A stretch of DNA of 64,000 bases from the NCBI RefSeq assembly GCF_016903815.1, contig NZ_CP069972.1; one strand, 5' to 3'. The notes beneath the pieces are model-generated. The model was not told where the DNA came from. It saw only the letters and a program-made list of their open reading frames with translations, and searched no databases. Within the stretch, counting starts at the first letter, position 1. Each line of letters opens with the position of its first letter. The DNA is from Escherichia coli (lineage in GTDB: Bacteria; Pseudomonadota; Gammaproteobacteria; Enterobacterales; Enterobacteriaceae). This document shows, piece by piece, positions 13,450-39,451 of this stretch. The translations under genes and the position numbers were made by a program.

Positions 13450-13482
13450 GGCCGCGCCGGATTCTGGCGCGGCCTTTTTTTT
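13450..13482 (+). terminator. Intrinsic terminator between convergent trbC and nikB
   Basis: 9-bp stem GGCCGCGCC/GGCGCGGCC followed by T8. Confidence 0.6.
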
Positions 13483-16180
13483 AACCTGGAGAAGGCGGTT
13501 CCCAGCGTTTATCCTGCTCCGGCGGAGGCAGTGATGCGTCATCGTTGCTGTTCGCCGCGATATAATCGCGGTAGTAGCGTTCACTTCCTTCACGGTGATG
13601 ATCCACGTCCGGTCGCGTAATCCTGTAGTCTTCGTGACCGGTACGGCCTGTCACATTATGCCAGGCAACCATTTCAGCAAAGACCTGGTTAAATTGTTTG
13701 TCGTTTCCTTCTGGTTCAAAACCCATGCGTGGATCACGCCCGAATAATACCGGTGCAATCAAATCCAGTTTATCTGCCAGCGCATTGCGGTCATGGTGAT
13801 TACGGAAAACAACCCTGTCACCATAATCCGTACAGACAAACTCTCCCGTCCGACGATCACGGAAACGAACACTCCCGTTCTTCTGCAAACGGGCCTCGAG
13901 ATCACCGGTATTACCGTATACCGGCGTTCCGCCCGGTTCACAAAGCACGACACAGCGGTCTGTTGTCGTTGTGCGTGACTTATCTTTACGGCGATCGCGA
14001 TAATCCCAGCCTCTCAGCTGCGATACAGCAGCCCTGTCTCCCTGAGCAGCCTGAATTTCGACCCACTGACGGTAAGAGGGTGGATACCACTTCCCGTCAG
14101 CAATAAGTTTCTGCCGCTCATTCCTGATGTCTTCTTTCAGCCTGATCAATGCCTGCATTCGCTGAACTTCTGCAATGTGATAATGCAGCTTACGTAATGC
14201 CGGATCATCGTACTGCGCACGAATGTGTGACTTCCGCAGACGGCATGCCTGATGAATTTCCCGACAACGTTCCCCATAACGCAGATCTGGTTTACGCCAT
14301 TGTTCACGCCATGCCAGATAGCGGGCACGCAGGTCAGCACGGGCCTCAGCTCTGGCTTCACGTCGCTGCCGGCGCAGCATTGGGTCACGTTTACTGCTGA
14401 CCCCGTACCTGTCACTGACAGCCAGCTCCGGGTTATAGCGACTTTCAGGTTGCACCCTGTCAAACAAATCTGCTGGGGCACTCACAAAAGGTCCGGCCTG
14501 TGGCTCTGCACGCCCCAGAGTCAGATCAGGATGAATGCTGCTGGCCTTCACCGGCGTTTGCTCATGATTAAAGGCATCAACGACAACAAGCCCGTGATGT
14601 TGTTTCTGTAGCATCAGTCCCTGTTGTGCAAACAACTCATGACAACGCTGCCAGGTAAACTCACCCTGTGTGATCATTTCTTCAATCTGAGGGCTACAAT
14701 GGCTGATGCTGTATCCCCACAGACTTTCTTTGTCAGAAAACAGTTCGCGTTTGATAGCCCCCTGCGGCCCCGTACCTGTACGCATACGGTGCCATTCTTT
14801 ATCGGTCGCAGGACAGCTCTCCATACGACGACCACGGAAGCGTTCTGTTGGCGTAACCTGGAGGAAAATATCTGTTGGTACAGGCTGCCAGCCACCATCG
14901 AGTTGATTCACATTGTCGAGCGTCAGCAGTGACCATACGCTGTCAGCACGAACGGGAGTCTGGTTATGATCATAACCGTCACAGATAACCAGGTGACCAT
15001 GCTGAACACGCATCCATAATCCCGCTTCAGCCAGTGTGCGGTGAATAGCCTGGCAGTTTTCCAGCCGTCCTTCCCGTGCCATTTCCGGCAGACGTTCTCC
15101 AAGATGACGACAGGCATACTGCTGCAGACTTTCTGTTTCAGCGATTTTTTCCGGGCGAACATCAGCTGCAATGAAGTCCGGATTATAGCGTCCTGGTGCT
15201 TCCACCTGGCTGAAAATGTCTTTTGGTACTGGCGTGTAGTCACCCATTTTTTTCATGAGTTTTTCTGCACACCAGGAGGGACCAAACGAGTCAAGCTGTA
15301 CACCTTCCCTGTTGCGATCCCAGCCATCCATCACCAGAAATTTTCCGTCCATCTGAGACAGGTACAGACCATCTTCCGCAAGACGACGATGCAGGGATAA
15401 CCAGTCATTTACAGGTTCACTGCGTAAACCAGCGACCGCTGTCTGCGCGACATACTCGCGAAAAGTTTGTTTTTTTCCGCGTGTCCAAGCGTTCTGGCGA
15501 TCACGTTCAACGGCAGTTTTGCGAACGATACGATTTCCCGGCGCATGGACCCAGCAACCGTTATCCGGAGCAAAACCATGCTTCAGTTCAAGCTCACGGC
15601 AGGCACGACTGAGTTTTTCCTGACTCCATGATAATCGGTTCAGATAACCCGTTTCAGGGTGTACCCGGTTAACAGCCACATGGACGTGCAGATTATCTGT
15701 ATCAGTATGCACGGCAGAGACATACTGATGGTCGGCAAGGCCGAGTGATTTCAGCGTATGACGTACACTGTCATAAATCTGTTCCGGACGCGGGCTTTCA
15801 TGTGACTGCCAGGAAAGGATGTAGTGAAAAACAGGATCAGTGTCATCTTTTGCATAGTGTGCCTGCCGGGCAATGTACTCCATATCTGCAGCGGCAGTTT
15901 CAAGAGAAGTACAGTTATGAAAGCAGGTGACACCATAAAAGTTGACCCATTCGCAGCCGTCCTTCATGACATCAACCAGCGCCACGAATGACTCATTTCG
16001 AAGACGTGTCGCATAATCAACAAGGCGACTGAAACGGCTTCGGTGCGGTTGTTCAGCCTGCGAAGAAGAAGATAAATCCAGTTCCTCATCGGTCATGTCA
16101 TCCCGGACAGAGACGTAGGATACCAGGTCTTCGAACGAAGACTTGCCGTCCCTTCTCTTTTTCGGAATGACTGCATTCAC
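13481..16180 (-). CDS. nikB: Relaxase NikB (899 aa)
   Basis: HxH relaxase motif in LHVHVAVNRVHPETGY; GTG start with SD GAGGA; directly downstream of nikA and adjacent to oriT; 899 aa as R64 NikB (recollection). Confidence 0.85.
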   Translation of the reverse strand: MNAVIPKKRRDGKSSFEDLVSYVSVRDDMTDEELDLSSSSQAEQPHRSRFSRLVDYATRLRNESFVALVDVMKDGCEWVNFYGVTCFHNCTSLETAAADMEYIARQAHYAKDDTDPVFHYILSWQSHESPRPEQIYDSVRHTLKSLGLADHQYVSAVHTDTDNLHVHVAVNRVHPETGYLNRLSWSQEKLSRACRELELKHGFAPDNGCWVHAPGNRIVRKTAVERDRQNAWTRGKKQTFREYVAQTAVAGLRSEPVNDWLSLHRRLAEDGLYLSQMDGKFLVMDGWDRNREGVQLDSFGPSWCAEKLMKKMGDYTPVPKDIFSQVEAPGRYNPDFIAADVRPEKIAETESLQQYACRHLGERLPEMAREGRLENCQAIHRTLAEAGLWMRVQHGHLVICDGYDHNQTPVRADSVWSLLTLDNVNQLDGGWQPVPTDIFLQVTPTERFRGRRMESCPATDKEWHRMRTGTGPQGAIKRELFSDKESLWGYSISHCSPQIEEMITQGEFTWQRCHELFAQQGLMLQKQHHGLVVVDAFNHEQTPVKASSIHPDLTLGRAEPQAGPFVSAPADLFDRVQPESRYNPELAVSDRYGVSSKRDPMLRRQRREARAEARADLRARYLAWREQWRKPDLRYGERCREIHQACRLRKSHIRAQYDDPALRKLHYHIAEVQRMQALIRLKEDIRNERQKLIADGKWYPPSYRQWVEIQAAQGDRAAVSQLRGWDYRDRRKDKSRTTTTDRCVVLCEPGGTPVYGNTGDLEARLQKNGSVRFRDRRTGEFVCTDYGDRVVFRNHHDRNALADKLDLIAPVLFGRDPRMGFEPEGNDKQFNQVFAEMVAWHNVTGRTGHEDYRITRPDVDHHREGSERYYRDYIAANSNDDASLPPPEQDKRWEPPSPG

Positions 16181-16540: not shown

Positions 16541-16625
16541 GGTGTCGGGGCGAAGCCCTGACCAGGAGGCAATTGTATAATCGCGCGTGCGCGGTTATAC
16601 AATTGCACATCCTGTCCCGTTTTTC
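16541..16625 (+). other. oriT: Origin of transfer (oriT) with predicted nick site
   Basis: Perfect 10-bp inverted repeat AATTGTATAA/TTATACAATT (16571-16604) followed 10 bp later by ATCCTG^T (nick predicted 16614/16615) resembling the IncP nic motif; leading genes then point toward this site. Confidence 0.65.
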
Positions 16626-18025: not shown

Positions 18026-18075
18026 CACATTGTCTCCTCATCGTCACGACTGCCGGGTCAGCCAGGTCATTTCCC

Positions 18076-18386
18076 GGAGGAGCGAAGCTCCTTCTGCCGT
18101 CCGGGTCTTCGGGGATTTCCCCGCAGTGGACCTTTCCGACGGGGGACGCTCACCACGTCACGGGGCAGTTGTCCGGGGGCAGACGCAAAAGTTTTTGACG
18201 CCTGCGGCAAAAAGTTTTGTGGCTGGTACATCTCTCCCCTGGACGACTGAAACGGGATGTGGTCATGTATGTACCCCCGGAAAGTCCGTCTGCGGAGAAC
18301 AGGCCGCAGTGCGGCGGCAGACAGGCAGAGACAGCTGCGCCATCAGGCGCAGTGGCCTTACACACCGTAAGGTGTGCAGGGAGCGC
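18076..18386 (-). promoter_or_regulatory. Family-1 hairpin repeat, copy A (ssDNA-promoter-like, Frpo/ssi-type)
   Basis: Shares about 300 bp with 21469-21964 and 27812-28310, including inverted arms CCCCGCAGTGGACCTTTCC / GGAAAGTCC(A/G)...GGGG and TTGACGC...GCGGCAAAAAGTTTTGTGG. Confidence 0.6.
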
Positions 18387-18501
18387 CGCATACGGCGCGA
18401 CTGAAGAAAAACGACGGCACAACAATGGCATGTGGTGGTCACTGGCACACCACTCCCGCACAGGTGAAAACAGAGAAAACCGCACGACATTTACAACCAA
18501 A

Positions 18502-21414: not shown

Positions 21415-21468
21415 GAAAACGTCTCCTTCTGCTGAATCAGGTCGCCGGGCCGACCGGTTGCTCCCCCG

Positions 21469-21964
21469 GAGGGGCGAAAGCCCCTTCTGCCGTCCACTTC
21501 TTCGGGGTTTCTCCCCGCAGTGGACCTTTCCGATGGGGCAGCGACTGCCACGGCACGGGGCAGTTGTCCGGGGGCAGACGCAAAAGTTTTTGACGCTTGC
21601 GGCAAAAAGTTTTGTGGCTGGTACATCTCTCCCCTGGACGGCTGAAACGTGTTGTGGCCGCTTCAGCCCCCGGAAAGTCCACAGCGGGGAAACAGGCCGC
21701 AGGGGGGGCGGCGGAAGGGCAGACAACTGCGCCATCAGGCGCAGTTTCCTTACACACCGTCAGGTGTGCAGGGAGCGCAGGTCACGGCGCGACAGAGGCG
21801 GCGCGACCGGAACGGTCGCTGCAAGCCTGGTTTTTCAGACATCGGACCGTAGCGGCAGCCCGAAACCGCGCCAGCGGGTTCGGCGGAGACTGGCGGGTGC
21901 GCCAGCAGCTGCCTGTCGGAGTCGGGCCTGACGACCGGATGCCGCCAGGCAGCCGGGAGCCGAA
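21469..21964 (-). promoter_or_regulatory. Family-1 hairpin repeat, copy B
   Basis: About 500 bp shared with copy C and about 300 bp with copy A; long imperfect inverted repeats. Confidence 0.6.
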
Positions 21965-22146
21965 GGGTGTCCCCGCCCCCGGGAGTCAGAACAACAGAAA
22001 CGACAAAACAGAAAAATGCCTCACACTATGACAGGCAGGAAGGGTAGCGCCGCAGGCGCGGCCCTCCTGTATTTCAGGCAGGCGTAAGCCTGCCAGGGTT
22101 TTCCGGGGGCCTGGCAGGCCATCCCCCCGCCGGAGCGGGGAGTAAA

Positions 22147-22647
22147 TCACCGACGGAACACATGACCGTCAATAAAGGTGAAGGAGTCCAGGAATAAATC
22201 CCGCGCATACGCCTCATAGTCAAAATAGAGCGCCACCGTCTCCGGCACGTCAGCCAGCAGGCCGGTATCACTGACGAACTCAACCGCAAAAGCCTCCTCA
22301 CTGTCAGCCTCGCCCCACCAGGCATCGCGGAAGCTGTCAAAATCCGTCTCACCGGTATCATCCACCCAGAGACGATAAGCCTCTTCGCAGCCTTCATCCC
22401 GCGCCTGGCGGAAGCCTTCAACCCAGGCCCAGTTGATATGGCATTCAGAGGCCATATTCCCCGGGAATCCCTCATAATCCTGAAACATCAGTTCCGGGTC
22501 GGTTTCATCCTGGTGAAGGGCACGGCAGGCGGCGAAAAAGTCGCGTTCATCATCAAACGTTGTCAGGTCAAACCAGCGGCCAGCGATGCTTCCACAGTTG
22601 TATTTGTGCCAGGTTCCAACGTATACAGCAGGTGCAACAACAGACAT
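22147..22647 (-). CDS. ardA: Antirestriction protein ArdA (166 aa)
   Basis: MSVVAPAVYVGTWHKYNCGSIAGRWFDLTTFDDE...; acidic; SD GGAGGA; matches ColIb-P9 ArdA (recollection). Confidence 0.85.
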   Translation of the reverse strand: MSVVAPAVYVGTWHKYNCGSIAGRWFDLTTFDDERDFFAACRALHQDETDPELMFQDYEGFPGNMASECHINWAWVEGFRQARDEGCEEAYRLWVDDTGETDFDSFRDAWWGEADSEEAFAVEFVSDTGLLADVPETVALYFDYEAYARDLFLDSFTFIDGHVFRR

Positions 22648-22659
22648 TCCCGAATCCTC

Positions 22660-22992
22660 CATAGTCACATGTTCTGCGACACCGGGCGGTGCCGTGCCTC
22701 CATCTTTGCCGGGCCTGCAGGGATGCAAGGGCGCAAGGGAAGCCGCAGCCCGACGCACACGGCTGGCGGGAGTTGGAGGGTGAGACCGCGAAATCTGAGC
22801 GGGTGAACGACCGGAAAATCACGGCAGACGGGAAGGAGGGACCGGGTGACCGCAGCGGTTCATCTTACCTTGCATCCCGCCCGCAGAAGCCCGGCTACGA
22901 TGGAGGCACGGCACAGCCCGCACACGACACGGCGGCCACATAACTGAAAACCCACAAGGCCATGCCCCGCATGGCCGGGTAAAAGCGGAGCC
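22660..22992 (-). promoter_or_regulatory. Family-2 hairpin repeat, copy 1 (upstream of ardA)
   Basis: About 330 bp nearly identical to 31955-32286; about 45-nt inverted arms (GTGCCGTGCCTCCATC...GATGGAGGCACGGCAC) separated by about 150 nt. Confidence 0.6.
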
Positions 22993-23108
22993 GGCGGCGA
23001 CGTCCTTATTCCGGCGAGAGCAGGGAGCACACCGCATGATCTCCAGACCACCCCTGGAACGAAACGATCATGACCGGCATGTCCCTGCGTAAAATATACA
23101 TGCCTGGT

Positions 23109-23705
23109 TCACCGGAGAATATCTGTGATATCCACAAGTTTTCTGTCGCGCAGCCAGTCCTGCGCTTCACGCACCACACAACTGTCCGGTTTCACCGCTT
23201 TCAGCGATGATGCCAGTCGCTTGATCAACATCACCAGTTCCCGTGTCTGTATGTCCGGCATTGTCTCCGGCGGAGCAGGGGGACTCTCATTTCCGACGCT
23301 CATCCCATGCGCTTCCAGTGTGGCACGGACAAACCAGGCGGCATCGACCAGTTGCTGTCCAATCCAGGCCAGATCGGCATTTCTGTCACGGGCTGCCATT
23401 CGCTCGCCCGACAGCGCCTTGCTGATATGGCTGCGCACCAGATTATCCAGGAGTGCCTGCGCTTCTTCCGGTGAAAAGCCACCTGGTATCTCTGTGCGCA
23501 ACAGCCCTTTCCTGTACAGAAGCTGCAGCAGATCAACCTGCGACCGCACAGCAACTATCAGTACATAACGGACAACATTCGCACTGGCAGTGGTTTCTGT
23601 ATCATTCAGCAGTTCTTCCGGATCGTTCCCCCCGGTGTTGCAGAGCAACGGCAACAGAGGTCGCATCCACGCGGGAACCTGGTATTTTTCGTCTGATTTC
23701 ATCAT
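23109..23705 (-). CDS. Hypothetical protein (198 aa), translationally coupled to psiA
   Basis: ATG at 23705 overlaps psiA stop (ATGATGA); SD GGAGAA; no recognised domain. Confidence 0.5.
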   Translation of the reverse strand: MMKSDEKYQVPAWMRPLLPLLCNTGGNDPEELLNDTETTASANVVRYVLIVAVRSQVDLLQLLYRKGLLRTEIPGGFSPEEAQALLDNLVRSHISKALSGERMAARDRNADLAWIGQQLVDAAWFVRATLEAHGMSVGNESPPAPPETMPDIQTRELVMLIKRLASSLKAVKPDSCVVREAQDWLRDRKLVDITDILR

Positions 23706-24421
23706 ATTACGTTCTCCAGCTTGTTCGGGATCATCCACTGCTCAAGTGCACGTACCTGTACCGGTGCACCACGACCGGCCTCACCGGCTTCAAAAATCAG
23801 CCGCCAGAGTGGTTCCTCCTGCCAGAAAAACCGGTCAAATGATGACAGTGATGGAAAACGCCCGCACCACCCCCAGAAAATCGTTTCCAGATCATGCTCC
23901 TCAACAACACCAGACCAGCGGGACAACCAGCTTCCGACCGTGGCGGGAGTATGAAACGCAAGGTCAATCTGCGCCTGAGCAAAACATGTCTGGTATTCCA
24001 GTTCCCGTCGTTCTGCCTCACGTTCCCGCTGGCGGCTGTATTTCTGCTCTGTCAGCGTGGTTTTCTGACGACGACGCTCACCTTCACGAAAAGGCACGGA
24101 CGGGAACAGACGGTGCCCCGCATCGGATGGCAGGGGAAGAACACAGACTTCCCCAAAACTTTCAATCAGTTTATCCACGGCAGCCAGCCACAGGAGACGG
24201 TTGCCATGAAATTCCTCCTTCGTCAGCGCAGGGGCAAAAAAGCGGAGATCGGTCAGCGAAATCCGGCGACTGCCATTCAGGCAGCGAAAGAAAGCGGTGG
24301 CATAAGGCCATGCTGAAAGTGTGCGTCCCTGACGACGACGTTGTTCTGTGACAGCCACCGCCTGCATGGCGGCCTGTTGTTCTGCGCTGAGGGGGATCAG
24401 TGCCCGTGAACGTGCGCTCAT
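23702..24421 (-). CDS. psiA: Plasmid SOS inhibition protein PsiA (239 aa)
   Basis: [53 protein letters not shown]...; ATGA overlap with psiB stop. Confidence 0.85.
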
Positions 24422-24852
24422 GCCTGACCTCCTTCTGCCATCAGGATATGGATGATGTCGTTAACACTGTATCCCTGCGCATCCAGTGTCGCGGCAAGCG
24501 CCAGCGTGTGACTGATCGCGACAGGCGTGAAGATATGTTGCACCTGAACGACGGCGAAAGGCTGTCCACCACCATTCACCAGAACCAGCATCCAGAGCTG
24601 AGAGACGTCTCCCGGCGAACATAATGCCAGGTGGAAACGTTCGTGGGCTGGCGTGAAACGAACCTGGACGGGGAAAAAGCCCCCGAACTCACTGCCATAC
24701 TCTCCGTTCATCACCCAGTTAGCCGGTGCGTCCACTTCACGCATCACCTCGTGAGTGAGATTACGGCGCATATCGCTTCCCGCAGCACGGATATCTTCAT
24801 ATTCCTGTGCGTTCATGGACTGCAGGGCATTCAGGGTCAGTTCAGTTTTCAT
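24418..24852 (-). CDS. psiB: Plasmid SOS inhibition protein PsiB (144 aa)
   Basis: [40 protein letters not shown]...; SD AGGGAG. Confidence 0.9.
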
Positions 24853-24906
24853 CACGGTATCTCCCTTGCTGCCGCCCCGTCTCCGGCGGGGCGGTGTGGT
24901 TGTTCA

Positions 24907-26865
24907 TCAGGCGGCATCAGCCAGGTTAGCGGTGTGTTCAGTGGCATCCGTCTGTGGACGTGGTGCACACATCCAGCCAGGCACCCAGCGGTTGTCTTTC
25001 ATATGGAACTCTGCATGTTCAGCCGCATCGCCTTTCTTCATTTTCTCCGCGTCCCGTGCGGCACCGGACAGTCCGGCCTCATTCAGGGCTGCGATAATCT
25101 GCGGCTTTTTCAGGTGTCCGAAGAAGTTTGCTTTTGTCGGCTGCCACCAGTCGCGCATGTGAAAGCCGATGGCGGTTTCCAGCGAGTCCAGCGGACTGCG
25201 TGACGTGTGACCACACTCGCGGGTCTGGACACCGTTAAGACTGCACGCGGTACAGAAACTGAGCAGGGATAACAGCACCTCCTGGCTAAGTGACAGGAAC
25301 GTCGTCATATCCCGTTCCCATCCTTCCGGCAGCAGGGCAGCAAAACGAGAGTGTTCTGCCATCAGCGCCATGAATGCGGCACCTTCCTTCCCTGACGGTG
25401 CATCGCTGGTCAGCGCATAATGCTCACATTCCAGGCGAATTCTGGCGGGACTACTATGCGCTTTGCTGTCAAACACATTCAGGCAGAGCGTCCATGCCAG
25501 CAGTGCCAGGGATTTGTCCGGTTGCTGCATCAGTGCTGCCTGGACTGCCAGCGTGCGCTCTGAGGTCAATTTAGTCAGCAACGGCAGACTAATTTCCTCC
25601 ACTGACGCGCTCTCCAGCCCCTGTTCCGTGCGGTCAGCGTCGTCAGCCACATCATCCTCACTGCGCAACTGCACACCACGCTGGATACACACATTACCGT
25701 AACGCCAGGACACCACCACGCCACTTCCGGCACGCATCTCCGGCGTCCACGCCCTGACCTTCGCCATGCAGTCAATCAGCTTCATTTCTGCTGCCAGCAG
25801 GTCAGATTCCTCACACTGGTTTTCCAGCGAGTCGTAACGAGCCATCAGTTCGTTCAGACGTTCGTCTTCCGCCTCCGTCAGCACCGCTTCCGGCTCCGGC
25901 AGGTTGCGGTATGCCCGGGCATCTTCACGGCACTCACCGACAGGCTCCATGCGTCCGGCGCACCATTCCCAGCCTTCGGCTTCCCGAAGGAACTCTGCGA
26001 CAGCCTGGAGTTTTTCCAGCAGGGCGGCATCGAGCGCCACGCGGTCGACATAACCGTCCCCGTCATCGCTGAACAAATCGGTGCGCAGTTCGTCTGGCGA
26101 GAAGGCATCAGCCCCCACGAAGCGGAATTTACTGTTCCCCGCCACCGCCACTTCACTTTCGGTCACCAGACGACGAATGGTCTGTACTTCCGGTTTACCG
26201 CCCCATCCCGACTGGCAGGCGGCTTCAAACACCTGCACCTGACGCGCGGTGTCGTTCTCCAGCGCCAGCGCCTGACAGTGCTCTGTGGTGATGCGGTCTT
26301 CTGCCAGCGCATCGAGGATAACCGGAGCAAGGTCTGCCAGTTTCAGCATTCGCTGAACGTGGCGGGGTGAATAGCCCAGCAAATCACCGATTTGTGCAGG
26401 CGTTTTGCCTTCCTGCGCCATTGCGCGGAATCCGGCAATCTGTTCGGCAGGGTGCATATCCCGACGCTGACCGTTCTCGGTCATCGATGCGGCAGTCGCC
26501 AGCTCCTGCGGAATGACCTTCACGCGTACAGGCCAGTCAGCCGGAAGGATGTTGCGCTCTGCCAGCATGTTGAGTGCTGCCAGTCGGCGACCGCCTGCGG
26601 CGACAGCGTAACGGTCACCAGGCAGGGTATGCACGACCAGATTCTGCAGCAGTCCGACGCCCTTAATGGACTCCGCCAGTTCGCTGACGGACTCCGCAGA
26701 ATACGGCACCGTGCGCACATTCAGCGGTGATTTAATCAGCGAGGCCAGCGGCACGCTCACTTCCTCCGTCTGCGCCAGCAGGGCAGACAGGACAGTTTCC
26801 TGCGTTTTTACAGATTTACGGCTTGCTTTGCGGGTGGTTTCTGGTTCACACTTCGTTACAGGCAT
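24907..26865 (-). CDS. ParB-like nuclease domain protein of the leading region (about 652 aa)
   Basis: N-terminal ParB/Sulfiredoxin-like region (…VVHTLPGDRYAVAAGGRRLAAL…) plus long C-terminal extension; upstream of psiB. Confidence 0.65.
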   Translation of the reverse strand: MPVTKCEPETTRKASRKSVKTQETVLSALLAQTEEVSVPLASLIKSPLNVRTVPYSAESVSELAESIKGVGLLQNLVVHTLPGDRYAVAAGGRRLAALNMLAERNILPADWPVRVKVIPQELATAASMTENGQRRDMHPAEQIAGFRAMAQEGKTPAQIGDLLGYSPRHVQRMLKLADLAPVILDALAEDRITTEHCQALALENDTARQVQVFEAACQSGWGGKPEVQTIRRLVTESEVAVAGNSKFRFVGADAFSPDELRTDLFSDDGDGYVDRVALDAALLEKLQAVAEFLREAEGWEWCAGRMEPVGECREDARAYRNLPEPEAVLTEAEDERLNELMARYDSLENQCEESDLLAAEMKLIDCMAKVRAWTPEMRAGSGVVVSWRYGNVCIQRGVQLRSEDDVADDADRTEQGLESASVEEISLPLLTKLTSERTLAVQAALMQQPDKSLALLAWTLCLNVFDSKAHSSPARIRLECEHYALTSDAPSGKEGAAFMALMAEHSRFAALLPEGWERDMTTFLSLSQEVLLSLLSFCTACSLNGVQTRECGHTSRSPLDSLETAIGFHMRDWWQPTKANFFGHLKKPQIIAALNEAGLSGAARDAEKMKKGDAAEHAEFHMKDNRWVPGWMCAPRPQTDATEHTANLADAA

Positions 26866-26923
26866 AATCATCCCCTTATAATTGCTTATGTCCTGCCGGA
26901 CGTTCGCGCGTCCGGCACCTCTC

Positions 26924-27157
26924 TTACTTAAGAATCCCGAAATCCCTGATGTACTGGTTCATCCAGTACCCGGCACAGTCCTCAAAATTCCAGGAGCGCC
27001 AGATCAACGTGCCATCCTGACGGACAACCAGGCGAAAATGCGTTCCCTGATCATCCTCGATAAAGACGTTCCGGTACTGTGCGGCAACGGCTTCCGCCTG
27101 TTCGCGGGTAAAGGAGCCGTCCGGCAGTCCCTGAAGTATTCTGAAATATTCGCTCAT
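26924..27157 (-). CDS. Small hypothetical leading-region protein (77 aa)
   Basis: ATG at 27157 with GGAG 8 nt upstream; between ssb and the ParB-like gene. Confidence 0.45.
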
Positions 27158-27214
27158 CCTCATATCTCCGGTGATGCCCCGCACAGGGCGGGGCGGTTGT
27201 CACAGTCAGCCCGA

Positions 27215-27742
27215 TCAGAACGGGATGTCGTCTGAAAACCCGTAATCCTCCCCCTCCGGCGGTTGCGGCTGAGGCTCTGGCTGCGCGGCCTTACGTCCAC
27301 GGCCTTTCGTTTTCGCGCCACCTTTTTTCGTCGCGTCAGCACTCTGTGGCTGCCCATTCTGCTGAGGCTTCGGTTGCGCCTGAGCGTTCTGCTGTGGTGC
27401 ACGTCCCAGCATCTGCACGGTGCCCGTGGTCTTAACAAGAATTTCAGTGACGTAACGGGTGATACCGTTATCTTCCCAGCTACGGGTGCGAAGCTGACCT
27501 TCGATGTAGACCTGCGCACCCTTGCGCAGATATTCACCTGCCACTTCCGCGAGCTTGCCGAACAGCACCACGCGGTGCCATTCCGTCTGCTCCCGCATCT
27601 CCCCCGTCTGTTTGTCACGCCAGCTTTCTGATGTGGCCACCTGCAGGTTTGCCACTGCGCCCCCGTTGGGGATGTAACGGACTTCCGGATCATTGCCCAG
27701 ACGCCCGACGAGGATGACCTTGTTGATACCACGTGCACTCAT
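27215..27742 (-). CDS. ssb: Plasmid single-stranded DNA-binding protein (175 aa)
   Basis: [48 protein letters not shown]...; Gly/Pro/Gln-rich linker and acidic DDIPF tail; SD AGGAGG. Confidence 0.9.
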
Positions 27743-27811
27743 AAGAACCTCCTGACTGAAAGATGTGAGATAAACCGGATACCGGCGACGGGACGTTCAT
27801 GTGCCCCTTCA

Positions 27812-28310
27812 GAGGAGCGAAAGCTCCTCCTGCCGTCCACTTCACAGGGGTTTCTCCCCGCAGTGGACCTTTCCGATGGGGGCCCGTTTACCGCCTCACG
27901 GGGCAGCTGTCCGGGGGCGGACGCAAAATTTTTTGCCGGGTTCATGGCTAAAAATTTTGTGGCCGGTGCATCTCACCCTGGACAGATGGAACGGGAGGGG
28001 GTTACGTCTGCCCCCCGGAAAGTCCACAGCGGGGAAACAGGCCGCAGGGGGGGCGGCAGGAGGGAGGACTGCTGCGCCATCAGGCGCAGTTTCCTCACAC
28101 ACCGTCAGGTGTGCAGGGAGCGCAGGTCACGGCGCGACAGGGGCGGCGCGACCGGAACGGTCGCTGCAAGCCCGGGTTTTCACGCATCGGACCGTAGCGG
28201 CAGCCCGAAACCGCGCCAGCGGGTTCGGCGGAGACTGGCGGGTGCGCCAGCAGCTGCCCGTCGGAGTCGGGCCTGACGACCGGATGCCGCCAGGCAGCCG
28301 GGAGCCGAAG
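27812..28310 (-). promoter_or_regulatory. Family-1 hairpin repeat, copy C (upstream of ssb)
   Basis: Near-identical to copy B over about 500 bp; homology ends at about 28310, right where the group II intron begins. Confidence 0.6.
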
Positions 28311-28316
28311 TGGGCG

Positions 28317-30650
28317 GTGCGACAGGAAGTCGCTTAACGTATTGTTTTACATTGATAAAACCAGCTATCCCATTAGCTGTAGCCTACCGGGACAGGCGTT
28401 GCCGGCAACGGCGGGGTCTGAAGCTCCCGGGACAACGAGAGCCGGGCGTCAGCCCGGGTAATGCCCCGTGAGGGGCTTTACCTTGCTGCAAGCATCATGC
28501 GGCAGGAGAGCAAGGCTGGTCAGAAGGGTTAACACATGTGAACTGTTGATAAACACCGTTATCGGCAACAGGCCAAAGATGCTGACAGGCCTGAACCAAA
28601 AGGTACGGGGTCCGGTTGCTACCTCGCGCACAGGGAGCACATGGGCGCAGAGACCCCCGGTGAAGAGACAGAACCCGCCCTGACCCTCTGTATGTTAAGC
28701 GGAACCTGGTAAACCCGTATCGCTGCCTCACAGGCAGGTGAACCGCAAGGAACACTGTTAGCGGTGCGGGCATAGGAGGACGGAAAAAGCGAATGCCCGG
28801 CTGTAATAACCGGGATACGGGGCAGGTTCCCCGACGCGAAAGCGGGCAGACTTCCGTCTGGTCTTTAATTGCATGAAAAGCTGTAAAGCAGTCAAAAGGA
28901 TATCAGCGAGATGAATACACACATCAGTGTGTCCACGATACCCCACCCGACAGGCTGGCACACCATAAACTGGAAAGCATGCCATGCCCGGGTGCGAAAG
29001 CTACAGTTACGGATTGCAAAGGCAACCCGACAGCAACAATGGCGGCAGGTCAGAGAACTACAGCGCATCCTCACCCGCTCATTCTCCGGCAAAGCCGTGG
29101 CTGTCAGGCGTGTAACTGAAAATACCGGTAAAAGGACACCCGGTATTGACGGAAAAATATGGCACACACCGAAGGAGAAATGGGAAGGAATATGCAGCCT
29201 GAATCTGTGTGGTTACAGGCCACAGCCACTACGGCGAATACATATCCCAAAATCAAACGGCAAAACGCGACCGCTGGGCATACCCACAATGAGGGACCGG
29301 GCCATGCAGGCACTGTGGCTGCTGGCTCTGGAACCCGTATCCGAGACCACTGCTGACCATAACAGCTATGGTTTCAGACCAATGCGCAGCACGCATGACG
29401 CCATTGAGTCCATTTTTCTGCGGATGAGCCAGAAAGTATCGCCCAAATGGATACTGGAGGGCGATATTAAAGGGTGCTTCGATAACATCAGCCATGACTG
29501 GCTGCTTTCCCATATTCCGATGGACAGGAGACTGCTTAAAAAATGGTTGAAAGCAGGTTACATGGAAAGAGGCGTGTTTAACCATACGAACAGCGGGACA
29601 CCGCAGGGAGGCATCATATCCCCTGTTCTCGCCAACATGGCTCTGGACGGACTGGAGAAGGAACTGATGCAAACGTTCAGGAAAAGTGGTTATCACAGTG
29701 CAAAGCACCAGGTGAATTATGTGAGATATGCTGATGATTTCATCTGTTCAGGCAGCTCCCGTGAATTGCTGGAAAATGAGGTCAGACCACTGATTGCAGC
29801 TTTCATGCGCGAACGAGGGCTGGAACTGTCGGAAGAAAAAACAGCGATCACACATATAGATAAAGGCTTCGACTTTTTAGGGCAGAACGTCAGGAAGTAC
29901 AACGGTAAAATGCTGATTAAACCGTCGAAGAAAAACCTGAAGAACTTCCTCTGTAAAGTCAGAGAAATAATTAAACGCAATCCGACGCTCCCGGCATGGA
30001 AACTGATAGGCCAGCTAAACCCGGTGATCCGGGGATGGGCTACCTATCACCGACACGTCGTGGCGAAAGAAACATTTAATTATGTCGACACCCAAATCTG
30101 GCGAGCTATATGGCGATGGTGTGTAAGACGGCATCCCCGGAAAGGATTGCGGTGGATCGCCGGACGATACTTCTCCTTTGAAGGCAGGCGCTGGATCTTT
30201 AAAGCCATAACCCCGGAAGGGAAAATTCTGACACTCTTCCGGGCAATGGAAACACCGATAAAGCGCCATATAAAAATCAAAGGCGAAGCAACACCATACA
30301 CCCCCGGAATGGAAATCTACTTTGAACGTCGTCTGGATCTAATCTGGAAAGGCAAATCAAAGAAGATGAAGACAGTAGTTCAACTCTGGAAGAGGCAGGG
30401 GAAACACTGTCCGCAGTGCGGACAACTCATAACCAACCAGACCGGATGGAATATACATCACCGGATCAGGAAAGTTATGGGCGGCAGTGACGAACTGACC
30501 AATCTCGAGTTGTTACATCCGAACTGCCACCGACAGTTACACAGCAGGGAAGCCGGTGCTCACCGAAAGCACTTATAAAGGCTTGAGCGGAGTGCGGGGA
30601 AACTCGCACGCTCCGTTCTTAGGGGGCGGCGGCGCAGCAATGTGCCGCTG
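28317..30650 (+). mobile_element. Group II intron (about 2.3 kb) with intron-encoded RT/maturase/HNH protein
   Basis: 5' GTGCG at 28317; about 590 nt of upstream structured RNA; ORF in domain IV; domain V hairpin GAGCGGAGTGCGGGGAAACTCGCACGCTCCGTTC at 30585-30618; 3' end approximate. Confidence 0.75.
28911..30578 (+). CDS. Group II intron-encoded protein: reverse transcriptase, maturase, HNH endonuclease (555 aa)
   Basis: RT motifs (GIDG, YADD) and C-terminal Cys/His HNH segment (CPQCGQ...HHRIRKVMGGSD...HPNCH). Confidence 0.85.
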   Translation: MNTHISVSTIPHPTGWHTINWKACHARVRKLQLRIAKATRQQQWRQVRELQRILTRSFSGKAVAVRRVTENTGKRTPGIDGKIWHTPKEKWEGICSLNLCGYRPQPLRRIHIPKSNGKTRPLGIPTMRDRAMQALWLLALEPVSETTADHNSYGFRPMRSTHDAIESIFLRMSQKVSPKWILEGDIKGCFDNISHDWLLSHIPMDRRLLKKWLKAGYMERGVFNHTNSGTPQGGIISPVLANMALDGLEKELMQTFRKSGYHSAKHQVNYVRYADDFICSGSSRELLENEVRPLIAAFMRERGLELSEEKTAITHIDKGFDFLGQNVRKYNGKMLIKPSKKNLKNFLCKVREIIKRNPTLPAWKLIGQLNPVIRGWATYHRHVVAKETFNYVDTQIWRAIWRWCVRRHPRKGLRWIAGRYFSFEGRRWIFKAITPEGKILTLFRAMETPIKRHIKIKGEATPYTPGMEIYFERRLDLIWKGKSKKMKTVVQLWKRQGKHCPQCGQLITNQTGWNIHHRIRKVMGGSDELTNLELLHPNCHRQLHSREAGAHRKHL

Positions 30651-30856
30651 CTACCCGACCAATAAAAGACAGCCAGAAACGGTGACAGTGTCACGGAATA
30701 TCACACCTGTTCCCTGCATACAGCCATACACTACCTTCTGACCGGAAAGCCGGGCCGGCAGCGCCGCAGGCGCTGCACCCCGCGTTTCCGGCAGGCGTCA
30801 GCCTGCCAGGGGTTTTCGCGCGGGCTGACAGGCGGCCTCCACCGCCTGCCCCTGTA

Positions 30857-31048
30857 TCACCTGTTTCTGCTGCCCTGAAGGATGTAGTGACCGCCCAGGA
30901 AAACCGCCTGCTGATTCGCCACAAAATCGCAGATTTCATCAACAATCTGCGCGGTGGTGAGCGGTTTCTGCCCCATTTCACGACGCCGCGCATTAATCAC
31001 GGCCCTGTAATTACGCAGAATTTCGCGGGTTTCTGTGCTGATATTCAT
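30857..31048 (-). CDS. Small hypothetical leading-region protein (63 aa)
   Basis: ATG overlaps stop of upstream ORF (ATGA); SD GGAGA. Confidence 0.4.
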   Translation of the reverse strand: MNISTETREILRNYRAVINARRREMGQKPLTTAQIVDEICDFVANQQAVFLGGHYILQGSRNR

Positions 31049-31467
31049 GACATCGTCTCCCCGTCCAGCGCCTGCAACACAACGTCCATTGCTTCGAGTT
31101 CCTCCCTGACGAATGCGTCACCGTCGCCCCCGTTCTCACTCCCGACGGCATACAGGCGCTTCATTTCACTACCTGCCAGCGCCATCACTTTTTCCAGCAT
31201 CACCGCCGGGACTGTCACATGACGGCTGGCGCGCTTTTCTTCCATCAGTTCATTGACAATATCGGAAACAACTCTGTCACATGCGCCATATACAAAAGCA
31301 TCGTCCAGCCGCTGCATGACGGTTTCCAGCTCATCGTCTGACAGGTTCCAGTCCTGGGCTATGTGACGCACATCCCCACGGGTCAGCACCACGGCAAAAA
31401 CGCATTCACTGTCCGGCACGTCTGTATCCAGTACATCGCGGATGATTTCTTTAACAGTACAGTACAT
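31045..31467 (-). CDS. Hypothetical leading-region protein (140 aa), paralog of 33170-33604
   Basis: SD AAAGGAGA; shares the LSDxEixTVxxRLxD segment and overall pattern with the 144-aa ORF at 33170-33604. Confidence 0.5.
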   Translation of the reverse strand: MYCTVKEIIRDVLDTDVPDSECVFAVVLTRGDVRHIAQDWNLSDDELETVMQRLDDAFVYGACDRVVSDIVNELMEEKRASRHVTVPAVMLEKVMALAGSEMKRLYAVGSENGGDGDAFVREELEAMDVVLQALDGETMS

Positions 31468-31513
31468 GTTCTCGTCTCCTTTACAGGGGCGGCATTGCCG
31501 CCCCGTCCGTTAA

Positions 31514-31939
31514 TCAGTCAAGTGCCGCGTAAATCGCGTTGCATTCGGGGTGAAATTCGATGTGGCTCCACAACTGCGCATCACGCATCCTGTACAGGTG
31601 TGTCAACCCTGCATCCCCGCTGTCGTGGTACAGCCACAACTGGCGGTTAATCACAAGGGAGGTAAGGATGATGCCTGCGGCATCAGCGCTCACGGTACGG
31701 TCAAACCAGTTTGCACCGTTCACCATGTGGAAACGGTCGCCATCCGGCATCATGTAACCGCCACCGTCCGGCAGGCGGATGAAGTGCCAGAATCCGCCTT
31801 CATATTCCGGCATCATTTTTTTCGCCAGCGCGTATACAGACGCTTCGGCATACAGAAAATCCAGGCCAAACAGGTAAGGCAGAAAAGACAGACGGTCGCA
31901 CTCTTCAACGTTCAGAGTGACAGGTTTCGCATATTGCAT
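31514..31939 (-). CDS. KlcA/ArdB-like antirestriction protein (141 aa)
   Basis: Size and sequence character of the KlcA/ArdB family; sits behind the same hairpin repeat family that precedes ardA; SD GGAGGA. Confidence 0.55.
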
Positions 31940-31954
31940 GATGTTTTCCTCCGT

Positions 31955-32286
31955 TGTTCACATATTCCGCGACACCGGGCGGTGCCGTGCCTCCATCTTT
32001 GCCGGGCCTGCAGGGTTGCAAGGGCGCAAGGGAAGCCGCAGCCTGACGCGCACGGCTGACGGGAGTTGAAGGGTGAGACCGCGAAATCTGAGCGGGTGAA
32101 CGACCGGAAAATCACGGCAGACGGGAAGGAGGGACCGGGTGACCGCAGCGGTTCACCTTACCTTGCAACCCGCCCGCAGAAGCCCGGCTACGATGGAGGC
32201 ACGGCACAGCCCGCACACGGCGCTGAGGCCACATAACTGAAAACCCACAAGGCCATGCCCCGCATGGCCGGGTAAAGCGGAGCCTG
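31955..32286 (-). promoter_or_regulatory. Family-2 hairpin repeat, copy 2 (upstream of klcA-like gene)
   Basis: Near-identical to 22660-22992. Confidence 0.6.
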
Positions 32287-32354
32287 CGGCGACATCCTTT
32301 TGCTCTTTCCGGGGACCGGCTGGAAAAGGCGGAGATTTTTCCCCGCCAGCGTCA

Positions 32355-33125
32355 TCATTTCCGGATTTTCGCCAGTGCATCCGCCATGCTGCGGATTTCA
32401 GTCCGGGCTTCCAGGACCACCTCCCGCAGAATATCCCGGTCAAACCAGCGACGGGACGGTTCATCCGGTATACGCAGCACATCGCAGGCCAGCCCACTGG
32501 ACAGGATATGCTCCACACACTCACTGACCAGATACATTTCCACCGACGAAAAACGAGCGCCCCGGTTCAGGATGGCATCGAGCACCACGGGCAGGTTTTC
32601 GTCGTCTTCATCGAGCCAGCAGGGGTGATCGCTTTCCTTCACAACCAGGCGAAAGCGGCGCGTCTGGCGGGTCAGCAACGTCTGACCGGTTGTGGTCAGC
32701 GCCGCCCTGATACGCCGCGCATCTTCTGCCACCCGGCAACTGACACTGCGTACCGCATCGTGCACCGCATCAAGAACTGCCCTGATTTCGTCTTCGGTCA
32801 GCCATTCTCCGGCATACGGGAAAGACACCTGCGTTCCGTCTGCCGGAAGTACCGGCAGCGACTGCCACTGACTGCCGGACAGAACAAGTTCCGCCCCGGT
32901 TCCGGTCAGTTTCTGAATGGCAGAGGCCAGGAGCGGCGGCAGTACGCCGCCGTGACGGTTGATAAGTAACGTCGCCAGCCGGGGCGCATCCAGCAGAACA
33001 TAAATGCTGATCCAGCCCGGATACTTCGGGTTACGCTGGTCAACATCCGTCTCTTCCGGCCAGCCCTGCGCCAGCAGCAGGTTACGGGCGTGGCGACAAA
33101 TCAGTGCATTCAGCGTTTCGTTCAT
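32355..33125 (-). CDS. Hypothetical leading-region protein (256 aa)
   Basis: ATG at 33125 with GGGAGA upstream; no recognised domain. Confidence 0.45.
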
Positions 33126-33839: not shown

Positions 33840-34523
33840 TTACGCAGCCTCCGGTTCAAACCAGTTATCATTCGCGGCCCCCTGCTGCATGGCCCGTTGC
33901 ACGGCGGTCAGTCGTTGCTGTCCGGCACGGTGATACTGTTCAAGCAGCTCGATACCGATATACCGGCGTCCGGACTGAAGAGCGGCCACGCAGGTTGATC
34001 CGCTGCCTGCAAACGGGTCCAGCACAATCGCGTTCGGATGTGTGAAGCTCTCAATCAGTGGTTGCAGGCTGGTAACGGGCTTTTCCGTCGGGTGATGGCG
34101 ATTGCCCGAATATTTCCAGCCCAGCACGTCCGGCAGCGGGTTTTGTGGCAGACGTGGACGGCCTTTTGCCAGGATGTAGGCACATTCGTGGCGATAGCCC
34201 ACATATGCGGCCTTCGATGTGTAGTTTTTGGTGAAGACCAGGTGACCAACAACGCTGAATCCCGCATTTTTCCAGGCAGACATAAAACGATCGACGCGAT
34301 TCCAGCCATAGAAGCTCACCATTAACGCGTCTTTTTTGAGTACGCGGTACATCTCATTACAGGCCGGTTGCAGCCATTCATCGGTTTTATCGCCGGCAAT
34401 GGTACGCCCCTGACGGTCACGAAAACCGACGAGGTACGGCGGGTCGGTGAGGATGAAATCAATGGCGTTATCAGGGATACGGGCCATAACATCGATGCAG
34501 TTACCGAGGACAAAACGGGACAT
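33840..34523 (-). CDS. Orphan DNA methyltransferase, DPPY motif (227 aa)
   Basis: Catalytic motif IV DPPY (FILTDPPYL) and AdoMet motif (LDPFAGSGST); no adjacent restriction endonuclease gene. Confidence 0.75.
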   Translation of the reverse strand: MSRFVLGNCIDVMARIPDNAIDFILTDPPYLVGFRDRQGRTIAGDKTDEWLQPACNEMYRVLKKDALMVSFYGWNRVDRFMSAWKNAGFSVVGHLVFTKNYTSKAAYVGYRHECAYILAKGRPRLPQNPLPDVLGWKYSGNRHHPTEKPVTSLQPLIESFTHPNAIVLDPFAGSGSTCVAALQSGRRYIGIELLEQYHRAGQQRLTAVQRAMQQGAANDNWFEPEAA

Positions 34524-34876
34524 ACCAAACTCCTTCTCTTACAGAGGGCACCGGGAGGGCACCCCTGTGGTGCCCGTTCCCCGCTGCCTGTGGGCTGTTC
34601 ACCGCGTCCGGTAACGGGTCAGGCCGACCGTGGAATACCGCAGCCGTCGTCTTTTTGACGGCAAGGCTATGCCGCGAAAGCGGCTTGAAGGGCGTTCATC
34701 AGAAAAGGGCGACGGGCTGGCGTACACTGTCACCGACGCCAGCCGGGAGCGGTAAAAGCGCCCGTCCCGTGCCCGGCCGGACGCGGACACTGACCACAGG
34801 CAGCGTTTATGCCGCGCCGCGTCAGCCGGCGCAGTAAAAAGAGGAGCACGGCGACATCCTTTACCGGAAAAGAAAC

Positions 34877-38202: not shown

Positions 38203-38276
38203 TTGTTATCCTGTTATCCTGCTATCTTGTTATCTTGTTATCTTGTTATCTTGTTATCTTGTTATCTTGTTATCTT
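38203..38276. repeat. Array of about nine tandem 8-bp TTGTTATC repeats upstream of parA (centromere-like)
   Basis: Direct reading; followed by imperfect palindromes (TTAACAACTTGCTAAGTTGTTAA). Confidence 0.65.
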
Positions 38277-38400
38277 AATTAATCTATAAATCAAATACTT
38301 AACAACTTGCTAAGTTGTTAACATAACAAAAATAATTGCATGGTTCGCGTTCAGATGGCAATATTAAGTTGTTAACTTAACAGCTTAATATGAGGCTATA

Positions 38401-39027: not shown

Positions 39028-39326
39028 GAAATAGAGCAAACACTTCACCTCGTGACGAGGCAGCATTTATTAACGGTGGCACGGCTGGCCTTGATAATAC
39101 CAAAAAGTCATCAGATAAATCATCGGTTGTAAGCAAAGCAAAACCAGTGAGTATTTCTTTTTTTGAAGAAAACCTAAAAGACATTGATGCCCTTATAACG
39201 GCTGAGATGGTTTCAGGTAAAGGCAGAGTGAATCGTTCTGATGTTGTCAGGGCGGCGGTAGAAGCACTTAAAACACTATCAAAAACAGAGGTATCACGAT
39301 TGATAGCAGAAGTAAAACAAAGATAA
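39024..39326 (+). CDS. Small centromere-binding partner of ParA (100 aa)
   Basis: Overlaps parA stop; small basic protein; flanked by repeat arrays. Confidence 0.5.
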   Translation: MRNRANTSPRDEAAFINGGTAGLDNTKKSSDKSSVVSKAKPVSISFFEENLKDIDALITAEMVSGKGRVNRSDVVRAAVEALKTLSKTEVSRLIAEVKQR

Positions 39327-39330
39327 CACC

Positions 39331-39396
39331 TTGTTATCTTGTTATCTTGTTATCTTGTTATCTTGTTATCTTGTTATCTTGTTATCTTGTTATCTT
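39331..39396. repeat. Second array of about eight tandem TTGTTATC repeats downstream of the par genes
   Basis: Same 8-bp unit as 38203-38276. Confidence 0.65.
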
Positions 39397-39451
39397 CAAT
39401 GTATTTTAGGATGACCTATGTTGAATAGAACCTAAAACAAAACAAATATTA

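Follow-up and report, generated by a model that had tools for sequence, protein, structure and literature searches.

Two copies of a probable class 2 single-stranded DNA promoter precede ardA and klcA/ardB in the leading region of an IncK2/Z plasmid

Results

The antirestriction genes ardA and klcA/ardB are each preceded, in the leading region of an IncK2/Z (I-complex) plasmid, by a copy of one long hairpin-forming cassette. Each cassette is, with a probability of about 0.9, a class 2 single-stranded DNA (ssDNA) promoter of the ssp2 family, working by the mechanism proposed below. Elements of this kind have already been described: the two cassettes are copies of a published hairpin promoter, and the window (the whole stretch of 64,000 nucleotides analysed, to which all coordinates refer) adds no new principle. 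A preliminary description of this DNA had regarded them as one shared single-strand promoter cassette. This main point holds, as the cassettes are homologous to (87-89% identity), and syntenic with, class 2/ssp2 elements, and -35 and -10 boxes are found only in the hairpin formed by the transferred strand.

The repeat unit and the flanking genes

A two-copy family of 300-nt repeats, 96% identical, was identified by the repeat finder at 22665-22964 and 31958-32257. In the pairwise alignment the similarity reaches approximately 22665-23007 and 31958-32299, and these intervals are denoted cassette A, upstream of ardA, and cassette B, upstream of klcA/ardB, respectively. The occurrence of a repeated element before both antirestriction genes, already noticed in the preliminary description, is confirmed, the units being about 340 bp long and about 95% identical. 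They had also been called identical, which is true only in part: near-identity stands and full identity does not, since identity is 94.7% over the 342 nt aligned by BLAST, and 97.1% between the 238-nt hairpin cores. Rfam matches were not found within the cassette, even with E values up to 1.

Both antirestriction genes are on the minus strand, and a cassette located before a gene is at its right in window coordinates. ardA spans residues 22147-22647, with the start codon at 22647 and the ribosome binding site GGAGG at 22656-22660; klcA/ardB spans residues 31514-31939, with GGAGG at 31948-31952. Both were assigned from the list of open reading frames and from the RefSeq annotation of the identical plasmid p86 (NZ_CP023387). 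The repeat was thought to end at the ribosome binding site, and only 5-6 nt separate its end from GGAGG in either copy. Cassette A is followed by ardA, and cassette B by klcA, a DUF1380 gene (31045-31467) and a 63-aa ORF (30857-31048), the latter two similarly on the minus strand. Co-regulation had also been suggested for the 256-aa ORF at 32355-33125, but this minus-strand ORF closes the methylase operon that precedes cassette B; it lies upstream of the cassette, and the promoter would fire away from it.

At the side distal from the antirestriction genes, the repeat includes a terminator-like hairpin, oriented on the minus strand. In cassette A (22953-22971) the hairpin is followed by a GGTTTTCAGT tail and ends the upstream psiB-psiA operon; in cassette B (32246-32264) it ends the methylase operon. 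A GC-rich stem-loop, a T-rich tail and an operon located upstream are found at both sites (22971-22953 and 32264-32246), which are predicted terminators, and L013 and L014 carry compensatory substitutions at two pairs of the terminator stem. The predicted intrinsic terminator of the preceding operon falls within the distal 85 nt of each cassette.

The transferred strand and its fold

oriT is found on the plus strand at 16575-16620, where an inverted repeat is followed by the motif CATCCTG/T, which we take to be the nick site, with the nick before the final T, from the IncI1/IncP nick-site consensus; nikA and nikB are located to its left. Because the motif is on the plus strand, the plus strand is the transferred strand, and hence the template for the antirestriction genes. 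The leading region is to the right of oriT in window coordinates, and all its genes are on the minus strand. The strand opposite to the transferred one folds almost equally well (-67 kcal/mol), so that folding alone cannot identify the active strand, and the assignment relies on how oriT and the genes are oriented.

In each cassette inverted repeats delimit a 238-nt hairpin, located on the plus strand at 22683-22920 in cassette A (DNA fold -73.6 kcal/mol) and at 31976-32213 in cassette B (-74.1 kcal/mol). The inverted arms of each copy feature a 32-nt tract, 91% complementary, followed inward by an 11-nt perfect pair. In the fold, arms of about 47 nt (5') and about 63 nt (3') are separated by a 128-nt apical domain; the earlier estimate, arms of about 45 nt set about 150 nt apart, was close to these values. 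The whole cassettes fold at -89 and -91 kcal/mol (z = -4.6), and none of 100 shuffled sequences was as stable.

The 5' arm of cassette A (22683-22729), putatively the template arm, includes the hexamers ATCTTT (22702-22707), facing the -10, and ATGCAA (22723-22728), facing the -35. The apical domain (22730-22857 in A; 32023-32150 in B, as deduced from the fold) is rich in G and weakly structured, and its conservation is very strong. The 3' arm (22858-22920), the non-template one, features a -35 box TTGCAT at 22870-22875, a 20-nt spacer and a -10 box TACGAT at 22896-22901. In cassette B, arm pairing and the promoter scan place the -35 box TTGCAA at 32163-32168 and the -10 box TACGAT at 32189-32194. 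In both cassettes the 3' arm reads TTGCA(T/A)-N20-TACGAT and is directed outward, past the base of the hairpin, to the gene. Folding of the T-strand had been indicated as a way to check the single-strand hypothesis: a long stem is formed in both cassettes, and the -35/-10 pair is found only in the hairpin form.

Transcription is predicted to start, on the minus strand, at 22693-22697 in cassette A (about T22695 on the template), which would leave a leader of about 47 nt, and at about 31988 in cassette B. The start in A was placed 7 nt downstream of the -10 and carried across via the pairing of the arms; the -35, -10 and +1 assignments are our own, and were not taken from a published start-site map. 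The spacing is non-canonical, as 20 nt on the non-template arm correspond to 15 rungs of helix, and promoter strength is consequently not readable from the sequence.

The cassettes could be seen as ordinary double-stranded promoters which were duplicated along with a shared 5' leader, the hairpin being either incidental or a repressor operator. Duplicated regulatory regions are common, an inverted repeat might in principle act as a palindromic site for a protein, and the stem is able to form on either strand. Yet no minus-strand promoter was detected by the standard scan, and neither strict nor relaxed scans revealed a sigma-70-like site on the mRNA-sense strand of the duplex. The TTGCA(T/A)-N20-TACGAT stretch of the 3' arm was the only site found in the relaxed scan, and a good -10 exists only on the non-template arm of the hairpin. 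The duplex sense strand reads TTGCAT-N15-AAAGAT in the window, a combination which, judged from its sequence, is unusable as a promoter, and CTGCAT or GTGCAT-N19-TTTTAT in pESBL and F. Arms of 47-63 nt which undergo compensatory changes moreover far exceed the size of an operator, and an origin as double-stranded promoters is highly improbable.

Conservation of the stem and of the promoter boxes

Pairing at the -35 is kept through sequence change, as TTGCAT pairs to ATGCAA in cassette A, and TTGCAA to TTGCAA in cassette B. The diverged lineage of Enterobacter and Klebsiella grimontii shows two compensatory stem pairs, and 95.4% of the cells in the stem are paired, versus 37-40% in slid controls. 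Only two pairs covary, each from a single lineage, formal covariation being thin because the copies are 97% alike. When elements of the window type and of the F type are compared, both spacer arms are replaced as blocks, and pairing is still kept. The base stem is invariant in all the copies examined, although most of it was imposed by the patterns with which they were searched for. RNAalifold, run on a MAFFT alignment of 15 copies, mispaired the -35/spacer region, since indels on both arms distinguish the two architectures, and was replaced by the folding of arms sequence by sequence combined with single-architecture alignment.

The boxes are similarly conserved. TTGCA(T/A) and TA(A/C)GAT are found on the 3' arm in all the 115 metagenome elements in which both boxes are readable, and the same boxes recur in 10 variant patterns among genome and plasmid copies. 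The opposing hexamer on the template arm is variable (ATCTTT, ATAAAA, ATAACA), and almost never complementary to the -10.

At least 1396 PLSDB plasmids have the window-type spacer architecture. Conservation of the 128-nt apical domain greatly exceeds that of klcA itself. Neither the spacer architecture nor the conservation of the apical domain is mentioned in the papers on pESBL and F ssp2. The class 2 element can be described as having two interchangeable stem architectures, and an apical domain under strong constraint. A canonical G-quadruplex motif was noticed in the template arm of the window type only (15 of 78 distinct hairpins), and was rejected as a general feature of class 2 elements. 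The hypothesis that the apical domain is a gene was also discarded: two frames are open on its mRNA-sense strand, but this strand contains only 8% A, which makes open frames uninformative. It is conceivable, though on balance doubtful, that the window type is a class 2 subtype in which the apical domain has a sequence-specific, undescribed function of its own, and that I-complex plasmids, having two such elements, convert their leading region to duplex in two stages. Such a reading suggests for the apical domain a role, for example, in setting roadblock strength or in binding a host factor.

Distribution of the element

The element was found in at least 5000 PLSDB plasmids, mostly conjugative. 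Among the metagenomic copies with sufficient flanking DNA (n=115), identified by a scan for cargo genes based on a 33-nt apical core, 88 are located before klcA, 27 before ardA, and none before other genes. The idea that the cassette may also be found in front of further anti-defence genes was therefore not borne out in this set. A different cargo gene was initially considered for the 27 elements, and rejected, as the products, which begin with MSVVAPAVYVGTWHKYN, are ArdA. Some plasmids feature 3-4 matching places, which might be mistaken for extra copies. Only the ardA and klcA loci are annotated in pE2863-1, the one plasmid which was opened, and the additional places are taken as opposite-strand matches of the arms. 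In thousands of enterobacterial plasmids, klcA and ardA are the only genes with which the class 2 element is associated.

A dispersed repeat of about 340 bp which carries inverted repeats, is very abundant in enterobacterial plasmids and is homogenised within one plasmid may resemble a non-autonomous mobile element (MITE- or REP-like), or a recombination product without a function of its own. The inverted repeats are, however, not terminal but internal, at 18 nt and about 87 nt from the unit ends. All the 115 flanked metagenomic copies, and all the 8 genome copies followed by a complete ORF, occupy either the klcA or the ardA locus; their orientation does not vary, and neither does their distance to the start codon. 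Moreover, the apical domain is better conserved than the neighbouring coding sequence. With internal inverted repeats and two fixed loci, the cassettes were not classified as mobile repeats, an origin to which almost no credence can be given.

Discussion

A plausible scheme of how the cassettes may work as class 2 ssDNA promoters is the following. In conjugation the plus strand would enter the recipient 5' end first from oriT (about 16.6 kb). While the DNA is single-stranded, the 238-nt inverted repeat would fold into a long stem, the 3' arm providing the non-template sequence TTGCA(T/A)-N20-TACGAT, the 5' arm acting as template. The -10 would be only partly paired, and about 5 nt would be bulged in the spacer. 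This pseudo-duplex would be bound by the sigma-70 RNA polymerase of the host, and transcription would leave the hairpin through its base, leading to the expression of ardA from cassette A, and of klcA, the DUF1380 gene and the 63-aa ORF from cassette B. Anti-restriction proteins would be made in this way ahead of complementary-strand synthesis, which would then destroy the hairpin; as the duplex appears unusable as a promoter, expression would shut itself off. The analogy with F ssp2 suggests that the stem may in addition hold up synthesis of the complementary strand until it is opened by UvrD, prolonging the single-stranded phase.

By means of ssDNA promoters, anti-restriction, SOS-inhibition and SSB genes are expressed during the few minutes that precede complementary-strand synthesis, after which the promoters turn themselves off. 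These promoters are thus one determinant of the success with which resistance plasmids establish in new hosts, and represent a natural, self-limiting genetic timer.

Comparison with known ssDNA promoters

Class 2 ssDNA promoters have been defined upstream of ardA and klcA in the IncI1 plasmid pESBL (Wen et al., Nucleic Acids Res 2025; PMC12672017). They mediate strong zygotic induction in transconjugants, and the starts determined by 5' RACE agree with predictions (PMC12672017). For F as well as for pESBL, a start at the base of the hairpin and a zygotic induction which declines once the DNA becomes double-stranded have been published. The window copies match the pESBL elements located 5' of ardA and klcA (88.9% over 351 nt and 89.4% over 357 nt), and F ssp2, located 5' of the klcA homologue (89.4% over 348 nt). 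The gene order around the element is the same as in pESBL, ColIb-P9 and F. Homology, a leading-region site 5' of ardA or klcA, and a stem-loop rebuilding -35 and -10 boxes are the features shared with the class 2/ssp2 group. The likeness to pESBL extends to the loci, the use of the transferred strand as template, the overall identity (87-89% over about 345 nt) and the 238-nt hairpin. Base stem and apical domain are identical, the 3' arm carries a -35 TTGCAT and a TA(A/C)GAT -10, and each plasmid hosts two near-identical copies. The spacers differ. In pESBL, F and ColIb-P9 the non-template arm measures 15 nt and the template arm 19-20 nt, the bulge is on the template arm, and the -10 TAAGAT faces ATAAAA. 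In the window, in contrast, 20 nt of non-template arm are opposed to 15 nt of template arm, the bulge is on the non-template arm, and the -10 TACGAT faces ATCTTT. Experimental data found in the literature all refer to the F/pESBL type.

F ssp2, located upstream of yfgB (ArdB/KlcA), is the only one of these elements reported to block complementary-strand synthesis, a block which UvrD resolves (preprint by Fraikin, Yamaichi, Lesterlin, bioRxiv 2026, 10.64898/2026.01.09.698686). Stalled synthesis maps to the end of the stem, at its GC-rich base; ssp2 also drives yfgB expression, and its deletion lowers transfer into several non-isogenic strains (10.64898/2026.01.09.698686). The window elements are similar to ssp2 for the position before a klcA/ardB homologue and for the GC-rich base stem. 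They differ in spacer architecture and in number, since F has one copy, and the window two, before klcA and before ardA. The presence of two copies could mean that there are two stall sites. Stalling at the stem end and the dependence on UvrD, along with the discovery of Frpo as a priming signal and with an apical domain conserved much beyond the needs of a promoter, would also fit an element whose main task on the transferred strand is in replication, as a priming site or as a programmed roadblock to complementary-strand synthesis, transcription being secondary or absent in this variant. The two roles are compatible, however, as F ssp2 itself combines them. Every copy that could be read has its -35 and -10 boxes conserved on the correct arm, and a role in transcription is favoured by the fixed placement of the element, about 50 nt away from the start codon of either anti-restriction gene. 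A mainly replicative function is improbable, and the cassettes are best viewed as class 2 promoters, which may in addition act as roadblocks.

Class 1 ssDNA promoters include Frpo1 and Frpo2 of F, and ssi1-3 of ColIb-P9 (Masai and Arai 1997; Bates et al. 1999; Couturier et al. 2023, PMC9849209). The cassettes were not assigned to this class, as no homology to Frpo1/Frpo2 or ssi1-3 was found. Samuel et al. 2024 was considered as a possible earlier listing of the element among Frpo-like candidates, but neither arm nor core sequences were found in the supplementary files examined. Class 1 is represented in the window by a first repeat family, of which three copies are located at about 18.1-18.4, 21.4-22.0 and 27.8-28.3 kb. 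This family, and not the one described here, matches the Frpo1 and Frpo2 loci of F, and no similarity between the two families was detected by blastn (word size 7, E up to 0.01). The principle is common to both classes: the transferred strand forms a large hairpin in which -35 and -10 boxes are rebuilt, and from which leading-region genes are expressed while the DNA has not yet become double-stranded. The two classes differ in cargo, which includes ssb-psiB-psiA and other genes in class 1, and ardA and klcA in class 2.

The repeat and its plasmid context

A direct repeat of 300 nt, present in two copies (22665-22964 and 31958-32257, 96% identity), was detected in the window by a repeat finder. 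By pairwise alignment the similarity spans about 22665-23007 (cassette A) and about 31958-32299 (cassette B), and the two cassettes are 94.7% identical over 342 nt in BLAST comparison. An identical hairpin element ahead of both antirestriction genes had been proposed in the preliminary description; the repeat is confirmed, though as a near-identical one. Both cassettes are located directly 5' of a gene, ardA or klcA/ardB, and end 5-6 nt from its GGAGG ribosome-binding site. In each, inverted arms of 32 nt show 91% complementarity, and a perfect pair of 11 nt carries on inward. Folding of the single strand gives -89.2 and -91.1 kcal/mol for the two cassettes (z = -4.6), a stability not reached by any of 100 shuffled sequences.

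Its ORFs, together with the annotation of p86, a near-identical plasmid (NZ_CP023387, typed IncK2/Z, MOBP, MPF_I), show the window to be an I-complex plasmid's leading region. The minus-strand nikB (13481-16180) is followed in gene order by nikA. Next come, likewise on that strand, a DUF4942 gene with further ORFs, ardA (22147-22647), a 209-aa ORF, psiA, psiB, a ParB-like gene, a DUF905 gene, ssb, klcA/ardB (31514-31939), a 256-aa ORF, a DUF1380 gene and a DNA methylase gene (33840-34523). The 256-aa ORF (32355-33125), suggested earlier to be co-regulated as a downstream gene, lies in fact upstream of cassette B, and is the last gene of the methylase operon. Directly upstream of nikA, the + strand carries at 16575-16620 an oriT-like inverted repeat followed by CATCCTGT, which we take, from the IncI1/IncP literature, to be the nick region. 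The + strand would thus be the transferred strand, DNA to its right entering first, and hence the template of ardA and klcA.

The leading regions of the window and p86 differ only by the insertion of a group II intron (+ strand, 28317-30659), a clean addition of 2343 bp. Rfam matches (RF02012, 28361-28510; RF00029, 30583-30659) and a reverse-transcriptase ORF (28911-30578) mark its parts. The intron sits 6 nt beyond the Frpo-like repeat found upstream of ssb, and is oriented with its sense strand on the transferred strand, in antisense to the leading-region genes. The window also hosts two arrays of the 8-bp tandem repeat TGTTATCT (38204-38284 and 39324-39404, about 1.05 kb apart). Rfam matches at 47918-48066, 48919-49006, 7088-7245 and 6376-6463 correspond to a PK-repZ pseudoknot (I-complex replicon control), a C4 antisense RNA, a sok antitoxin RNA and AgrB.

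Hairpin anatomy and putative promoter boxes

The hairpin cores of cassettes A (22683-22920, -73.6 kcal/mol) and B (31976-32213, -74.1 kcal/mol) are both 238 nt long and 97.1% identical, and consist of a 5' arm of 47 nt, an apical domain of 128 nt and a 3' arm of 63 nt. The latter features TTGCAT (TTGCAA in copy B) and TACGAT separated by 20 nt. Once folded, this arm would stand in for the non-template strand of a promoter directed out via the stem base toward the gene. A relaxed promoter scan of the stem found no candidate besides TTGCA(T/A)-N20-TACGAT, and none on the mRNA-sense strand, in agreement with the standard scan; in duplex DNA the sense strand would read TTGCAT-N15-AAAGAT. In the hairpin the TACGAT -10 box is opposite ATCTTT of the template arm, with two mismatches, and the non-template spacer bulges out by about 5 nt. 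Predicted transcription starts at about T22695 and 31988 would leave leaders some 47-49 nt long. Within the distal 85 nt of each cassette lies a terminator-like minus-strand hairpin (22971-22953 and 32264-32246), the stem of which shows compensatory changes in distant copies. The cassette would thus combine the terminator of the preceding operon, a single-stranded DNA (ssDNA) promoter hairpin and a short leader.

Copies A and B differ within the -35 box by a compensatory swap, from T:A to A:T. In an alignment of 56 distinct hairpins of the F type, that is with the spacer architecture of F, pESBL and ColIb-P9, 95.4% of the cells are paired, against 37-40% with slid partners, and two pairs change on both sides; with so little variation, the test carries little weight if taken alone. 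The strongest signal for the stem is the asymmetry of the boxes between the arms. In every copy in which both boxes are readable TTGCA(T/A) and TA(A/C)GAT are kept in the 3' arm, while the hexamer facing the -10 is variable and hardly ever complementary to it. Such asymmetry fits an already partly melted -10 that is read on the non-template strand. Since the complementary strand reaches almost the same stability (-67 kcal/mol), the strand was assigned by oriT and gene orientation.

The apical domain (22730-22857 in A, 32023-32150 in B) is rich in G (43%) and poor in T (8%), and has the same length, 128 nt, in all but one of 75 distinct copies. In this domain three distant genome copies, from Enterobacter, Entomohabitans and Klebsiella grimontii, keep 90-93% identity to that of the window, as against about 74% in the klcA coding sequence and 58-68% in the flanks. 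The domain is not needed for rebuilding the -35 and -10 boxes.

Distribution of the element

The element was found in at least 5000 PLSDB plasmids; among the matches listed, carriers are mostly conjugative and belong to Escherichia, Klebsiella, Salmonella and Shigella. A search by structural pattern (both base arms, 180-210 nt apart) matched 10 species-representative genomes, and KlcA is encoded by the first downstream ORF in all eight copies with a complete ORF. Metagenome contigs, scanned with a 33-nt apical core, yielded 124 elements at 120 loci, followed by klcA (88), ardA (27) or a contig end (9). The preliminary description had proposed to look for the cassette ahead of other anti-defence genes in related plasmids; among these 124 elements, no gene besides klcA and ardA is seen to follow it.

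Comparison with known ssDNA promoters

A first repeat family is present in three copies, upstream of the DUF4942 gene (about 18073-18404), a 144-aa ORF (about 21465-21965) and ssb (about 27812-28310). It matches the Frpo1 and Frpo2 loci of F in BLAST, and three ssi-type (class 1) loci of pESBL. The cassette family has no similarity to Frpo detectable by BLAST; it matches the site directly upstream of the F klcA homologue (89% identity), and the pESBL-EA11 intergenic regions directly 5' of ardA (88.9%) and klcA (89.4%). The pESBL hairpins have been described as class 2 ssDNA promoters (Wen et al., NAR 2025, PMC12672017). Their high pairwise similarity was remarked, start sites mapped by 5' RACE agreed with the authors' predictions, and strong induction in transconjugants faded over time, lasting longer in a uvrD recipient; the element was also reported as conserved in F. 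The F copy, named ssp2, drives yfgB, an ArdB homologue (2026 preprint, 10.64898/2026.01.09.698686). Complementary-strand synthesis stalls at the ssp2 stem end and the stall is resolved by UvrD; when ssp2 is deleted, PsiB production drops by half and transfer into non-isogenic hosts is reduced (same preprint). By these matches the cassettes belong to the published family, and the single-strand promoter initially proposed appears, on sequence grounds, to be the right reading. They are a real, functional-looking element, of a kind already described in late 2025. The region upstream of the methylase gene (34510-34760) is 97.6% identical to that upstream of M.EcoGIX in pESBL, locus of a described class 3 ssDNA promoter.

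Class 2 copies residing in the same plasmid are 97.1% (window), 99.2% (pESBL) and 99.6% (ColIb-P9) identical, those from different plasmids 86-96%, a pattern of concerted evolution that indicates gene conversion between the ardA and klcA copies. The spacer measures 15 nt in the non-template arm and 19-20 nt in the template arm in F, pESBL and ColIb-P9, in contrast to 20 and 15 nt in the window. Both spacer arms are replaced relative to the F type, and pairing is retained. PLSDB records containing the window-type arm at ≥80% coverage number 1396; for the F-type arm there are at least 4617. Hybrid elements also occur, in small number. The window-type template arm hosts a canonical G-quadruplex motif (G3N6G3N6G3N5G3; 22711-22739 and 32004-32032, + strand), overlapping the complement of the -35, which occurs in 15 of 78 distinct hairpins and is absent from the F/pESBL-type arm. 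The two architectures, concerted evolution and the apical constraint find no mention in the cited class 2 and ssp2 papers; what remains new relative to those systems is the second architecture of the stem, together with the constraint on the apical domain.
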